DNA of 64,000 nt from Octopus vulgaris (Eukaryota): the NCBI GenBank assembly GCA_951406725.2, contig OX597822.1, positions 71,300,001 through 71,364,000 of the forward strand, written 5' to 3'. Each line of letters opens with the position of its first letter. Positions within the stretch are counted from its first letter, which is position 1. Positions 15,682 through 61,145 of this stretch are shown one piece after another. The translations under genes and the position numbers were made by a program. Under the pieces are notes generated by a model, which saw only the letters and a list, made by a program, of their open reading frames with translations, was not told the DNA's origin and searched no databases.

Positions 15682-16840
15682 ATTGCAATGTTATTATTGG
15701 TCCAAATATGCTTGAGGTATGTTCGAATCAGGGAACCAGCTACTCACTGTGTTTTGCCATGGAAAATATCTCCTGCTTGTTGATAAATGGTATGTATGCA
15801 ACAATATCAGCTCACAGCACTGCCTACCCAGACTGTGAGATGCAAGCATTTTGGAGTAGTTATCTCCTCTTTGGTCATGGTCACCAGGCAGGTGGCGTTG
15901 TGAGCTGATTGAAGAAACTAATTCTCTTATGCTTTTTCAATTGCTATATGGTGACTGGCAGTGCTGTGTGGCAGCTCACCATAAGTAAATTACGGAGAAG
16001 GAACGCCAAGCCGTGATAAGTAAAATTGCAATGTTATTCTTTTCTATGATAGTCACAAGGTCTGAAATTTTTTGGGAGGGGCCAAGCTATTAGATCGACT
16101 CCAGTATGCAACTGGTATGTAATTTATCTACCCTCAAAGGAAGAAAGGTAAAGTTGACCTTGGTAGAATTTGAACTCAGAACATAGAGACAGATGAAATA
16201 CTGCTAAGTATTTCACCTGGTGTGCTAATGATTCTGCCAGCTTGCCGCCTGACTTAATAATCTTTTCTACTTTAAGCACAAGGCCCAAAATTTTTGGGGA
16301 GAGACCAGTCGATTAGATTGACACCAGCATGCAATTGGTACCTAATTTATCAACCCCAAAAGGATGAAAGACAAAGTTGACCTTGGCAGAATTTGAACTC
16401 AGAACATAGAGACAGATGAAATTGCACTAAACATTTCAGCCAGCGTGCTAACGTTTCTGCCAGCTCACCGCCTTTAAATATTCTTTTCTTCTCTAGGTAC
16501 AAGGCCCAAAATTTTGGGGGAGGGTGGTAAGTCAATTACATCGACCTCAGTATGCAACTGGTACTTAATTTATTGACCCCAAAAAGATGAAAGGCAAAGT
16601 CGACCTCAGCGAAATTTGAACTCAGAATGTAAAGACAGATGAAATACTGCTAAGCGTGCTAACATTTCTGCCAGCTCACAGCCTTAAAATTGCAATGTTA
16701 TTATCAGTCCGAATAAACTACTCCAAAATGCTTGCATCTCACTGTCTGTGTAGACAGTGCTGTGAGCTGATAGAAGTATATATACACCCTTTGTCAACAA
16801 GCAAGATATATTTTCCGTGATAAAACACAGTGAGTAGCTG
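15682..16840. mobile_element. Fold-back element with inverted arms of about 125 bp (15737-15862 / 16716-16840), interrupted by a SINE trimer
   Basis: cagctactcactgtgttt...atgcaagcattttggagtagtt vs aactactccaaaatgcttgcat...aaacacagtgagtagctg. Confidence 0.7.
16039..16685 (-). mobile_element. Three head-to-tail SINE family B copies inside one TSD
   Basis: TSD aaaattgcaatgttatt at 16022-16038 and 16686-16702. Confidence 0.85.
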
Positions 16841-17472: not shown

Positions 17473-17616
17473 TTAAGAAATATTGAGTTTCTAAATCTCT
17501 CGTAGAGAGGTGTACGGTGGTGGAGCGATATAATGGTTGTATACTGTCAATCTAACAAGAACGTGTACCCCCTACTGTCACGTTCTTGTTAGATTGACAG
17601 TATACAACCATTATAT
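17473..17616. repeat. Short insertion in (TA)n ending in a perfect 38-bp hairpin
   Basis: 17528-17565 is the exact reverse complement of 17579-17616, with a 13-nt loop. Confidence 0.9.
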
Positions 17617-17995
17617 ATATATATATTGCAGCATAACCAGCCCATTTAAGAGTACTCCTCAATTATTGGACAATAAACTGTGCTTGCAAAAACCTTTTGA
17701 GTCGAGTGAAGTCATTATTGTGGCCGATGCCAGTACCGCCATGTTGGTAGCATGTAAAAAGCACCATTTGAGCTGGTTGATGCCAGTGCTGCCTGACTGG
17801 CTCCCACTCCTGTGGCACGTAAAAAGCACCATTCCAGCGTAGTTGATGCCAGTACCACCTGACTGGCCCTCATGCCGGTGGCATTTAAGTAGCATTCACT
17901 ACACTCTCGGAGTGGTTGGCATTAGGAAGGGCATCCAGCTGTAGAAACTTTTGCCAGATCAGAATGGAGCCTGGTGCAGCCTCCTGGTTATAGCT

Positions 17996-18318
17996 GAGAC
18001 GGAAAGAAAGAATTAAAGTGAAGCATAAAGGTTAATAGTTCAACTTTCTATAACTTAGGAAAGTTGAACTATGAACTTTTATGCTTCTTTTTTCTTCTCT
18101 CTTTCCATCTCCTTATTCTTTTACACCCTTCCTCTATGTCATCATCTCATTAACATATACCATTCTCATTTTCCGTATTTCTCTTTGATGATGGAATATC
18201 CCATACTCGAGGATATCCCAGAAACAACTGTAAAATTTTGAATTTCTTCCTATAATAATAATGTATACAACTTGAGATGCTTGCCTTACCTTAATGTTTG
18301 CTGTCCTGTTTAACAATT
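17996..18318 (+). mobile_element. Decayed PLE-like fragment: 5' fold-back (17996-18111) plus decayed hammerhead (18182-18235), ending at (TA)n
   Basis: TTGATGA-TGGAATATCC...GGATATCCCA-GAAAC-AACT-GTA; hairpin gaagcataaaggttaatagttcaacttt / aaagttgaactatgaacttttatgcttc. Confidence 0.65.
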
Positions 18319-18327
18319 ATATATATA

Positions 18328-18449
18328 TCACCGTGATCACCGTGACCGACCAGGCTATCAGATGCTGCTACACATCGCTGGTCACAATGGGCTTCACATT
18401 GTTTTAGTCTTCAAATGACGCCACCCCGCTGGCTAAGCGAACAGGCCAA
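18328..18449 (-). mobile_element. Isolated 3' tail of the OR-like SINE, in (TA)n
   Basis: Matches 3019-3130 (caccgtgaccgaccaggctatcagatg...gctggctaagcg). Confidence 0.85.
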
Positions 18450-18730
18450 TATATATATATATGTATATATATATCATAATCATCATCATCATCATCGTTT
18501 AACGTCCGTTTTCCGTGCTAGCATGGTTGGATGGTTCGATCGGGATCTGGGAAGCCAGGAGGCTGCACCAGGCTCCAGTCTGACCTGGGAGTGTTTCTAC
18601 AGCTGGATGCCCTTCCTAACGCCAACCACTCCGTGAGTGTAGTGGGTGTTTTTTACATGCCACCGGCACATGTATCGCAACTACTATTTCCATTTGATAT
18701 TTATTTCGATGTTTATGTACTTGACTCAAT

Positions 18731-18764
<34 letters not shown>

Positions 18765-18972
18765 GAGCACACACATACATATATGTATATAACATATATC
18801 ATTGTTTATTTACATTATCTACGTTTGACAGATATTTGTCTTCATCTTGTTTGTTGTTAATACATTTTGGTTTCATGGGGGAAATTTTCAAACCTGGGTT
18901 CTCATTCCTAAGGTATTTTTCGATGTTGTTGTTGTTGTTGTTGTTGTTGTTATTATTGTTATTATTATTATT

Positions 18973-19532
18973 GAGTGAGAGAGCAGTTCATGCCATCAAA
19001 GTGACACTGGGGTAAAATATACGAAGCCCAATATACCCATCATGACTACCCGTCTGATAAAGGTACACCAGGCACATGCATCACAACCATATGTGCGCGA
19101 CATGGTGATCTCATATCAAGATAAACAGCACATGACCTTGCAGGTGGGGCCCAGTTAGAATTTTCTTCAGGTTGAGTAGCCCATCCTGCTCAAACGGTCC
19201 CTGAATAAGGGTTGTTTAAGGATGTTGAAAGAACCACCCATGTTTCCAGAGGTGAACTATTCAAACCCCAAAGAATCCCTCTCAACACATGGCTATGATG
19301 CTCCCCCACTACTTCTGCTCGTGATCAGAGATGCACATATTGTCAGCCACTAAGGGACATGCTCAACTGGTTAAGGTCAAACATCTGACAAGCAAATCTG
19401 TGGTATTGAGCAGAATATTTACTGTAGTCCATCTCTTATACCAAGACAAAACAATGTACATGATAACACTTCCAATCAGTTAAGATCAGAAGCCATGAGA
19501 GCCACTGCCTGGTACTGCATCAGGGCATTTAT
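18973..19532 (-). mobile_element. Non-coding element of about 560 bp inserted into (TAA)n; orientation inferred
   Basis: (TTA)n directly on both sides; higher GC than the flanks; no ORF. Confidence 0.7.
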
Positions 19533-20144
19533 GGTACTGCATCAGGGCATTGGTACTGCATCAGGGCATTGGTACTGCATCAGGGCATTTATGTACTGCA
19601 TCAGGGCATTGGTACTGCATCAGGGCATTGGTACTGCATCAGGGCATTTATACTGCATCAGGGCATTGGTACTGCATCAGGGCATTGGTACTGCATCAGG
19701 GCATTGGTACTGCATCAGGGCATTGGTACTGCATCAGGGCATTTATGTACTGCATCAGGGCATTGGTACTGCATCAGGGCATTTATACTGCATCAGGGCA
19801 TTGGTACTGCATCGGGGCATTGGTACTGCATCAGGGCATTTATACTGCATCAGGGCATTGGTACTGCATCAGGGCATTGGTACTGCATCAGGGCATTGGT
19901 ACTGCATCAGGGCATTGGTACTGCATCAGGGCATTTATACTGCATCAGGGCATTGGTACTGCATCAGGGCATTTATACTGCATCAGGGCATTGGTACTGC
20001 ATCAGGGCATTGGTACTGCATCAGGGCATTTATACTGCATCAGGGCATTTATACTGCATCAGGGCATTGGTACTGCATCAGGGCATTGGTACTGCATCAG
20101 GGCATTGGTACTGCATCAGGGCATTGGTACTGCATCAGGGCATT
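19511..20144. repeat. 33-copy tandem array of the element terminus (core tactgcatcagggcatt)
   Basis: Counted 33 cores; junctions gg x22, ta x7, tatg x2, tatgg x1; one substitution near 19814. Confidence 0.95.
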
Positions 20145-20432
<288 letters not shown>

Positions 20433-20620
20433 TGGTCACTGCCTGGGATTGAACTCAGAGTCTTGGAGTTAGTAGCCCATACTCTTAATCACTATGCCAT
20501 ATGTATATATATATGTCATTGTTCTTATGCAAAAGTGTCATAAGTCTATATATATATATAACACACACACCCACATATACATATATATATATATATAACA
20601 CACATATAAATATATAGATT

Positions 20621-20654
<34 letters not shown>

Positions 20655-20666
20655 TTCTCTCACACC

Positions 20667-20697
<31 letters not shown>

Positions 20698-21428
20698 CTA
20701 TATATAAATACTCTTATAAACATTGCAGTAGGGGTTAATTTTCATAGGAGTTTTAAAAATAATCAATAAATTAAATTTAGCTGAAGTATGGGATGGTTTA
20801 CTAATAATACATTGACAAGAACCAAAGGCATGAATTTCATACATTCATAAGTGAAATTTTATTGCTATTTCAGCTGTGTGTAGCAGAATCTATACACAAT
20901 GGACAAGAAGTTGTAGAATTAAACGAACGCCTATGCAACCTGTGGCCAAATTCTGCACATAAATCTCTTTTGCTCTTTCTCACCATATATATATATATAT
21001 ATACATATATACACACACCCCACTCACACAAATACACATACATGTAAATACACAGATGTTCACACACATGTGTATATAAAAATAAATATATATATATCAT
21101 CATCCTTAGCGGTTCGGCAAAAGAAACCGATAGAATAAGTACTGGGCTTACAAAGAATAAGTCCTGGGGTCGATTTGCTCGATTAAAGGTGGTGCTCCAG
21201 CATGGCTGCAGTCAAATGACTGAAACAAGTAAAAGAGTAAAAGAGTAAAAGAGTATCATCGTTTAACGTCCGCTTTCTATGCTAGCATGGGTTGGACGAT
21301 TTGACTGAGGACTGGTGAACCAGATGGCTGCACCAGGCTCCAATCTGATCTGGCAGAGTTTCTACAGCTGGATGCCCTTCTTAACGCTAACCACTCCGAG
21401 AGTGTAGTGAGTGCTTTTATATATATAT

Positions 21429-21520
21429 AAAAATTTTTTTTTGTAATGAGATAAAAAAAAACCAAGGCAGTTTAGATTTTTGCCTTGGTTTTTTATCTCA
21501 TTACGGAAAAAAAATTTTTT
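21429..21520. repeat. Hairpin in TA-rich context
   Basis: gtaatgagataaaaaaaaaccaaggca (21443-21469) vs tgccttggttttttatctcattac (21481-21504). Confidence 0.8.
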
Positions 21521-21915: not shown

Positions 21916-22711
21916 TGTGTACAGTGCTCAGGTGCACTACAACTCATCTAAAGTGTATATATAATCAGGTGTAGTTTCGGCGGATTTCGGAAAGCATGAG
22001 GGCCTTAAAGGATGCAGTGTCATGGCAGTCAACAACTGATGCAGGCAGTTTATTCCATGCTTCAGCAACTCTGAGCGTGAAAAAATGTTTCCGAAAGTCA
22101 TGGGAGCTGTGTTGTTTTCTGACTTTGTAGGCATGTCCACGTGTGTTAGACACATGGAGATCAAAAAGGTGTTCAGTGTTGTTGTTGGTGAGGTGGTTGA
22201 TAACTTTGTGGGTTTTTACCAAGTCCGTCGCCAGACGCCGGAGCTTCAGTGAATCCATGCCCAGGGAAACAAGGCGCTCAGAATATGGTAGGTGTCTGAT
22301 GGAGGGTATGCGTTTGGTTGCACGTCTCTGGACAGATTCCAGGAGGTCAATGTTCTGAGCAAGATAGGGGTTCCAAACTGATGATGCGAATTCCAAGTGT
22401 GGTCGTACCATAGCTGTATACAGTTTTAAATAGATGGCTGGAGAGCGGCTAACAAAATTCTTGCTGAGTGATGCCAAGACACCCTCGGCCTTCTTGACAA
22501 TTTTAGAGATATGCTTTGTCCAACACAAATCACTGCTGACAGTGATGCCTAGGTCACGATCGCAAGAGGATTTCTTGATATCAGTGTTGTGGAGGGTGTA
22601 TGTGGACGCAGGGTTTTTTCTCCCAAAATGCATGGTGGTACACTTGTCCACAGCCAGTTTCAGTTGCCAGTCTGTGATCCATTGCTGCATTGTGTCTAGG
22701 TCTGATTGCAG
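21915..22711 (-). mobile_element. 5'-truncated CR1/L2-group LINE with (ATT)n tail, inserted into a (GAT)n tract
   Basis: RT C-terminal ORF, short 3' UTR with GTGC-ACCTGA-GCAC stem-loop, tail is plus-strand (AAT)n at 21863-21915. Confidence 0.9.
21965..22690 (-). CDS. CR1/L2-type reverse transcriptase C-terminal fragment (241 aa uninterrupted; truncated TE ORF)
   Basis: W...W.LKL...KC, RDLGI, LY...VRPHLEFASSVWNP, LESVQRRATK, Y.ERL..L...SL..RR, TRGH..K, FFT.RV...WN.LP..VV motifs. Confidence 0.9.
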   Translation of the reverse strand: MQQWITDWQLKLAVDKCTTMHFGRKNPASTYTLHNTDIKKSSCDRDLGITVSSDLCWTKHISKIVKKAEGVLASLSKNFVSRSPAIYLKLYTAMVRPHLEFASSVWNPYLAQNIDLLESVQRRATKRIPSIRHLPYSERLVSLGMDSLKLRRLATDLVKTHKVINHLTNNNTEHLFDLHVSNTRGHAYKVRKQHSSHDFRKHFFTLRVAEAWNKLPASVVDCHDTASFKALMLSEIRRNYT

Positions 22712-60491: not shown

Positions 60492-61145
60492 AAGGCGGTG
60501 AGCAGGCAGAAATGTTAAGCATGCCGGGCGAAATGCTTAGCAGTATTTCGTCTGTTTTTATGTTCTGAGTTCAAATTCTGTCAAGGTCAACTTTGCCTTT
60601 CATCCTTTTGGGGTCAATAAATTAAGTACCAGTTACGCACTTGGGTCGATGTAATCAACTTAATCCCTTTGTCTGTCCTTGCTTGCCCCTTTATGTTTAG
60701 CCCCTTGTGGGCAGTAAAGAAATAAGAAACATTAGCACATCAGATGAAATGCTTAGTGGCATTTCGTCTACCATTATGTTCTGTGTTCAAATTCTGCCAA
60801 GGTCGACTTTGCCTTTCATCCTTTCAGGGTCGATTAAATAAGTACCTGTTATGCACTGGGGTCGATGTAATCAACTTAATCCCTTTGTCTTTCCTTGTTT
60901 GGCCCCTCTATGTTTAGCCCATTGTGGGCAGTTAAGAAATAAGAATCATTAGCACACCAGGTGAAATGCTTAGGGGTATTTCGTCTGCTGTTAGGTTTTG
61001 AGTTTGAATTCCACTGAGGTCAACTTTGCCTTTCATGTTTTCAGAGTCAATAAAATTAGTACCAGTTACATACTGGGGTCGATGTAATTGATTTAATCTA
61101 TCCCCCAAAAAATTTGAGGTCTCATGCTTCCTATAGAAAGGATCA
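60492..61145 (+). mobile_element. SINE family B trimer
   Basis: Three cores; aatggactg.ca flanks at 60480 and 61146. Confidence 0.8.

Follow-up and report, generated by a model that had tools for sequence, protein, structure and literature searches.

A high-copy non-coding Octopus repeat whose right end recurs in tandem: 33 terminal units at one locus and how they may have arisen

The element and its terminal array

We analysed a 64,000-nucleotide stretch of the Octopus vulgaris genome (contig OX597822.1, positions 71,300,001 to 71,364,000; this whole stretch is the window, and all positions below are counted within it). It holds a non-coding element which is followed, at its right end, by a tandem array of that same end. 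The features of the locus are as follows.

18924..18972, no strand: left flank, (GTT)n then (ATT)n on the plus strand, the minus strand reading (AAT)n(AAC)n; presumed priming target
18973..19532, minus strand (putative, from folding): 560-bp non-coding, high-copy interspersed element
18979..19052, minus strand: predicted stem-loops at the putative RNA 3' end, from folding against shuffles
19391..19529, no strand: 139-bp terminal segment that is tandemly repeated in other copies (P0006, twice, and P0029; in run X2 the joint runs from 19525 to 19391)
19511..19532, minus strand: last 22 bp of the element, from which each unit is templated (stops 19528, 19529 or 19532; restarts 19511-19514)
19533..20144, no strand: 32 further units of 19-22 bp with one substitution (TRF and unit decoding)
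20145..20147, no strand: GTA, either a last 3-base restart (19512-19514) or G plus target, abutting the microsatellite (junction decoding)
20148..20431, no strand: interrupted (TTA)n right flank, 284 bp (TRF)
20432..20490, minus strand: head of a tRNA-like short repeat whose (AAT)n tail is the right flank (labelled by eye from A- and B-box-like words)

The element terminus ends cctGGTACTGCATCAGGGCATTTAT at 19532, and the array consists of 33 copies of a 16-bp core (19514-20144) with 32 joins between them, reported by TRF as period 19, 33.1 copies and score 1090. A sequence-only reading of the same DNA had described an element of about 560 bp lying in TAA-type repeats (18973-19532) with 33 units and one substitution, and our recount agrees with it; its tally of the joins (22 gg, seven ta, two tatg and one tatgg) proved exact. 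The lone substitution is an A>G in the core that starts at 19806. With F standing for tatgg, G for gg, X for tatg and T for ta, the joins run FGGXGGTGGGGXGTGGTGGGGTGTGGTTGGGG, the longest type coming first, and this order is irregular, as had been claimed, in the sense that it matches shuffles. Every join can be read as a stop at 19529 or 19532 and then a restart at 19511-19514 within the terminus, which upholds one half of the earlier description of register-shifted junctions; the other half fares less well, as the gg and ta joins, 29 of the 32, share one 19-bp period, so most junctions are not shifted in register at all. No join holds more than three bases of (TAT)n, which would be expected of a fixed RNA end and not of a repeat tail. 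The array closes, again as had been reported, with GTA running into (TTA)n, which is interrupted as it continues to 20431. At this locus the element is flanked by TAA-type repeats on both sides and on the same strand, and it appears to sit inside the (AAT)n tail of the tRNA-like repeat at 20432-20490. The window holds no second copy of it.

Several other features of the window were recorded alongside. On the minus strand at 21916-22570 a LINE ORF that we take to be CR1/L2-like is present with its 3' end, beyond which come a short UTR and a tail of (ATT)n; Pfam returned no family for this fragment. Tandem units of 217-223 bp, in 2.6-2.7 copies, lie at 16054-16647 and 60530-61088 and resemble the window's common short repeats, whilst two strong inverted repeats at 17528-17615 and 18001-18105 draw chance microRNA matches in Rfam.

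A high-copy family with a repeating right end

The element is a very abundant, dispersed, non-coding Octopus repeat family. Part of 18000-19533 was present in 20 of 24 public runs, with a best share of 0.66 of its words, and large shares were spread over five coded organisms. In X18-X20 the share fell under 0.1, and these three runs carry no weight in the evidence. Four of the 24 runs were mapped, onto 18790-19572 with 18914-18977 masked, a target that takes in three of the 33 units. Aligned on this target were 120523 contigs of run X2 (organism A), 74019 of X10 (organism E) and 10766 of X16 (organism A, a run guessed to be RNA), contig depth ran along the whole element in all three, and most depth lay over the element. 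Translated copies are present in UniRef entries of Octopus bimaculoides, which places the family in the genus Octopus; among 18 of the 28 matches in a HMMER protein search, six were family copies and 12 were unrelated repeats or weak matches. In the raw WGS run X23, which bears the organism A label and with it the species label of the run with the largest share, 11 reads out of 12.9 million aligned, mostly to mosaic relatives. A mislabelled run, filtering or a lineage that lacks the family might account for this scarcity, and no conclusion here draws on X23.

The element body holds no ORF of at least 120 aa, the only such frames being those that run through the array, and with no RT (reverse transcriptase) or restriction-like endonuclease ORF the element is at most a non-autonomous passenger. 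A partner LINE for it was found neither in the window nor in the sequence collections searched. We found no Pol III promoter, and no tRNA, 5S or 7SL head by ARAGORN or Rfam, a single degenerate internal box pair being all that was seen; ARAGORN called 0 tRNA genes, the tRNA-like head at 20432-20490 included. All Rfam matches over 17500-21500 fell below the gathering score, none giving a family for the element. An HDV-like ribozyme was sought in one diverged copy, with no Rfam match to E 10 and 0 hits of our own crude descriptor on both strands, and a wider list of pairings for such a fold gave no convincing L3 loop by eye. Protein searches with translations of the array (111-356 and 33-105 residues) gave no match, the array 19-mer gave only three chance matches with dissimilar flanks in metagenome contigs, and three longer patterns gave 0 matches in contigs of viruses and prokaryotes. 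Neither the papers searched nor supplement files 1-4 of PMC9115989 contained any of four 16-mers taken from the element, and the literature search found no published description of the array; the element itself may well be catalogued in Repbase or Dfam.

Abundant relatives keep the middle of the element and differ left of 19258 (128, 14 and 190 contigs) or right of 19420 (108 contigs of X2, seven of X16), and among those that share the middle there may be a sister element or the autonomous partner itself. In the protein entry P0002 the last 67 residues derive from the plus strand of the element and the N-terminal part is unrelated, possibly an exonised copy or a gene-prediction error; Pfam has no family for it.

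The right end of the family is usually single, with 19532 followed by (TAT)n in 214 contigs of X2, 31 of X16 and 305 of X10, and the same single end is seen in P0030; an alternative usual end, 19529 followed by (ATT)n, occurs in 118 contigs of X10. These two usual ends coincide with two of the stops, 19532 and 19529. Other insertions with terminal repeats, whose absence was to have counted against the sequence-only reading, are present in contigs of three runs with other joins and other unit lengths. Joins of three lengths that are absent from the array here were found: 18 bp in eight contigs of X2 (summed depth 20364) and one of X16, 17 bp in six contigs of X2, one of X16 and two of X10, and 20 bp in four contigs of X2, one of X16 and one of X10. 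Together with the four types in the window they make seven regular join types, all of them products of the stops 19528/19529/19532 and the restarts 19511-19514; a join with a CTA insertion in X10 lies off this grid. All six indel rows listed within 19511-19572 (the indel table has nine rows) fall at joins and none in cores; the P of 8e-5 is rough, and the rows depend on one another.

In other copies this end returns to points much further back, by 47, 119, 139, 192 and 233 bp (five joints among those listed). The return from 19529 to 19391 (139 bp) occurs in two O. bimaculoides entries, twice in one of them, and with one letter changed it is also found in run X2; the 139-bp unit may represent a satellite or subfamily of greater age that arose from this end. 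When unitigs of the one array were simulated at 80-fold depth, they reached 9200 at 19550 (loosest bound 51920), against which the X2 depth of 192763 amounts to about 21 locus-equivalents of array, a rough figure drawn from summed contig depth and not a copy number. No second array is complete in the contigs, which reveal joins but do not resolve loci, and a small number of long satellites could supply the additional array DNA. Depth past the terminus relative to terminal depth was 40% in X2, 3% in X16 and 0.7% in X10, and the low value in X16, which comes from organism A as X2 does, counts against the account favoured below. On the joins and jump-backs of other copies and the array depth in one run, the repeating right end is a family-level trait.

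Strand, re-priming and the growth of the array

Folding makes the minus strand the better candidate RNA, as the sequence-only reading had assumed: its z was -2.44, with 2/100 shuffles as good, vs. -0.22 for the plus strand (38/100). The left end at 18973-19052 folds on the minus strand only (z -2.04, 7/200 shuffles; plus z +0.80), and since the minus strand folds better, the RNA 5' end is more likely to be the right one. Over 22 columns the start of the minus strand is similar to the 3' part of the neighbouring tRNA-like head (shuffle P 0.004, the best of four comparisons). Strand bias of A-to-I type in X16 (10 T>C vs. five A>G places) is too weak to assign a strand. Taken with the TAA-type repeats on both sides, the folding fits a Dong/R4-type passenger with its 5' end at the right; of the R4/Dong-type TPRT that had been proposed, the flanks bear out the target, but no Dong/R4 partner was found. 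The CCTG...CAGG hairpin, which had been offered as a restart feature, was rejected in that role as unsupported, since shuffled sequences fold equally well (z +0.20 on the minus strand, +0.01 on the plus strand).

The opposite orientation, in which the right end would be the RNA 3' end and the units would stem from repeated restarts of initiation by UnaL2-type slippage, yields the same structure, and a weak hairpin does precede (ATT)n. On the sense strand of the CR1/L2-like LINE end in the window, the tail is likewise (ATT)n. Slippage in UnaL2 has already been described as telomerase-like (PMC1636434). We nevertheless regard this orientation as very improbable, given the folding, the tRNA-like resemblance of the minus-strand start, the lack of similarity between the element and the window LINE's 3' end (shuffle P 0.19), and joins that come without variable (ATT)n. 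An assembly artefact at the locus is scarcely credible: no aligned piece spans the stretch, but public runs that are independent of one another have contigs with gg and ta joins at high depth, and a collapsed or looped assembly would not look like this irregular order with its single private substitution.

The sequence-only reading had an RT re-prime some 30 times. Had one insertion event written all 33 units in this way, the RT would have processively recycled the last 17-22 RNA bases about 30 times, and we consider this unlikely. The join order is what such an event might leave, being like random (longest repeat 7 vs. a shuffle mean of 7.9, with LRS and LZ also like shuffles, and no signal in a pairwise block test, P 0.70); the sole substitution is confined to one unit, the first join is the longest, and X2 adds its many locus-equivalents of array and further join types. 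However, when arrays were simulated to grow in blocks of at most 3, 6 or 12 units, 8-16% of them agreed with all three statistics vs. 8% of shuffles, so an irregular order is no proof of one-pass synthesis. Growth by single-unit slippage reproduced the order in 0/400 simulations and was rejected, so that the caveat of later slippage, which the reading had itself entered, fails for single units and may hold for multi-unit block duplication.

The run ta-gg-gg-gg-gg does recur three times, as had been pointed out (P=0.135 in 20000 shuffles), and a division into three blocks, each ending in this run, was equalled by 9/300 shuffles, a post hoc comparison. The tatg join makes up two of the 32 joins here, yet is absent from indels reaching 1% in any run, which hints that one tatg was copied from the other. 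With the pairwise test null and LRS and LZ like shuffles, support for later duplication is weak.

The cleanness of the array can be read in two ways. At 13 listed places the element body departs from the family's majority letter; scaled to the array, this would mean 14 substitutions where one is seen. Several of these differences, however, are subfamily letters (22-45% in X2, 1-2% in X10), and the copy may accordingly be of an age at which a clean array is no surprise, as a single event would have it. If one to three of the differences are private, one array substitution is expected; if at least five are, one substitution in 612 bp is too few for a single event (P 0.027 at five, 1e-5 if all 13 are private). 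The longest comparable R2 insert among those listed in the part of PMC3774820 seen by us carries three copies, of about 20 nt. What stands of the reading, then, is a dispersed family that repeats this end with other joins and unit lengths, the minus strand as the better candidate RNA and the TAA-type flanks; for the number and order of the units, block duplication serves as well as a single event. The wider proposal, that an Octopus non-LTR RT performs telomerase-like processive repeat addition in the germ line, laying down a whole minisatellite per insertion and doing so far more commonly in one lineage than in its sister species, seems to us doubtful.

A purely DNA-level minisatellite would begin with one 22-bp duplication, acquire small deletions at the joins and then spread by unequal exchange and homogenisation. 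Each join type can indeed be derived from the 22-bp tatgg join by a deletion nested within it, of a kind open to DNA repair, most joins share the 19-bp period, and the array is more uniform than the likeness of the body to the family majority; the contrast between organisms in depth past the terminus (40% vs. 0.7%) is typical of satellites as described in PMC10702118. This origin is improbable on three grounds: the join has six variants in length or letters where the cores show a single substitution and, among the indels listed, none, the restarts and the long jump-backs use the same terminal stops, and several join types at single-copy depth in organism E look like independent short events.

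Quite improbable, too, is a master RNA, in which a source copy already bearing an array is read through from upstream and its daughters inherit the array, varying by RT slips. An identical 139-bp join in two O. bimaculoides entries, with its one-letter variant in X2, is what inheritance would give, the window copy bears letters of the subfamily enriched in organism A, and RNA-borne inheritance of 5' junction variation has been proposed for R2 (PMC3774820). Against this, the 17- and 18-bp joins that are abundant in X2 are absent from the 32 joins here, and the question of origin is shifted to the master and left unanswered.

The account that we tentatively favour, whilst rating it a little short of evenly balanced, combines likely re-priming by an RT with probable later growth of the array. 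The locus carries a copy of the high-copy repeat described above, which likely travels with a LINE that targets TAA, and the RT was likely primed at the left (TAA)n. On reaching the RNA 5' end it would fail to join the target and would re-engage 17-22 bases back with an overlap of 0-1 base, several times, before the join to (TTA)n; multi-unit duplication at the DNA level probably lengthened the array afterwards. Speculatively, the unit length may be that of the terminal RNA stretch which the RT shields from host RNase H, or alternatively free short 5' fragments may be used in end-to-end jumping. We infer in this account the RNA strand, TPRT of Dong/R4 type, re-priming by an RT and not by a repair polymerase, and the later duplication; between RT re-priming and iterative synthesis by polymerase theta the sequence cannot separate.

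Comparison with known systems

A close parallel is in R2, for which PMC3774820 describes tandem duplications of 13-28 nt at 5' junctions (about 5% of junctions in flour beetle B). The likeness lies in short direct repeats of RNA 5'-terminal sequence at an insertion junction with variable joins, whereas R2 repeats 28S target bases in single duplications that are explained without repeated copying and the Octopus element repeats its own sequence 33 times (PMC3774820). R2 proteins perform serial template jumping in vitro and give tandem products in cells (PMC11371274), and microhomology and non-templated bases are documented at R1/R2 5' junctions (PMC2718515). As a case of the family's repeated end the array is unusually long and clean, and it would work like R2-type 5' re-priming carried much further.

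For Dong/R4 elements, 1129 recently active Dong-R4 insertions are listed in O. vulgaris (PMC13282606) though for O. bimaculoides one study reported that a Dong element had not been active recently (PMC9115989); a ribozyme in Dong cuts at the element 5' end, after TAA repeats (PMC3774820), and non-autonomous, non-Pol III derivatives of SIDE type exist (PMC3414825). The Octopus element resembles Dong/R4 and SIDE-type elements in having TAA repeats on both sides, in being non-coding and in lacking a Pol III head (PMC3774820, PMC3414825, PMC13282606). It differs from Dong/R4 in having no detected HDV-like ribozyme and no demonstrated LINE-shared end, and in its array, which goes unreported for Dong/R4 in the parts of these sources seen by us.

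In squamates, processes at the DNA level bring SINE-derived satellites to about 1000 units (PMC10702118). They share with the Octopus array tandem units that stem from one portion of a short retroelement, a terminal unit of greater length, an abundance that is specific to lineages and alternating subvariants (PMC10702118). Squamate units of about 115-215 nt are, however, 63-97% alike and are attributed to recombination (PMC10702118), in contrast to the near-invariant 17-22 bp Octopus units that vary at the joins only; the 139-bp Octopus unit is closer to the squamate satellites than these are. The array has the structure of a SINE-derived satellite, the element being perhaps a SINE in a loose sense only. 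Among the octopus repeat classes presented in the portion of PMC8967140 seen by us, none has this feature.

UnaL2 offers a LINE RT that repeatedly copies an RNA end and has already been likened to telomerase, but its repeat is 5 nt, pre-exists in the RNA, usually in three copies, and lies at the 3' end (PMC1636434). Telomerase itself and the DRT10 and DRT2 systems, DRT10 making tandem repeats with a telomerase-like RNA (PMC12632851), likewise produce many head-to-tail copies of a short RNA segment (PMC12632851, PMC12039810). As described in those sources they are dedicated enzymes with a structurally bounded template, whereas the Octopus array has realignment on 0-1 base, ragged boundaries and no sign of function. 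The telomerase likeness drawn by the sequence-only reading therefore extends to the product and not to the mechanism, the joins allowing an overlap of 0-1 base with no template alignment region.

How the 5' end of a non-LTR insertion is finished is named as the greatest uncertainty of the R2 model (PMC3774820), and a high-copy family that records jump-backs at one end supplies thousands of natural junctions on which 5'-end completion can be tested. If whole arrays are written at once, then retroelements would give birth to full-length minisatellites, a LINE-type enzyme would display the repeat addition that is central to debates on the origin of telomerase, and a by-product to watch for would arise when R2-like proteins are used for gene insertion. 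If the arrays instead grow later, the Octopus family would still be a clear case of RT errors seeding satellites.
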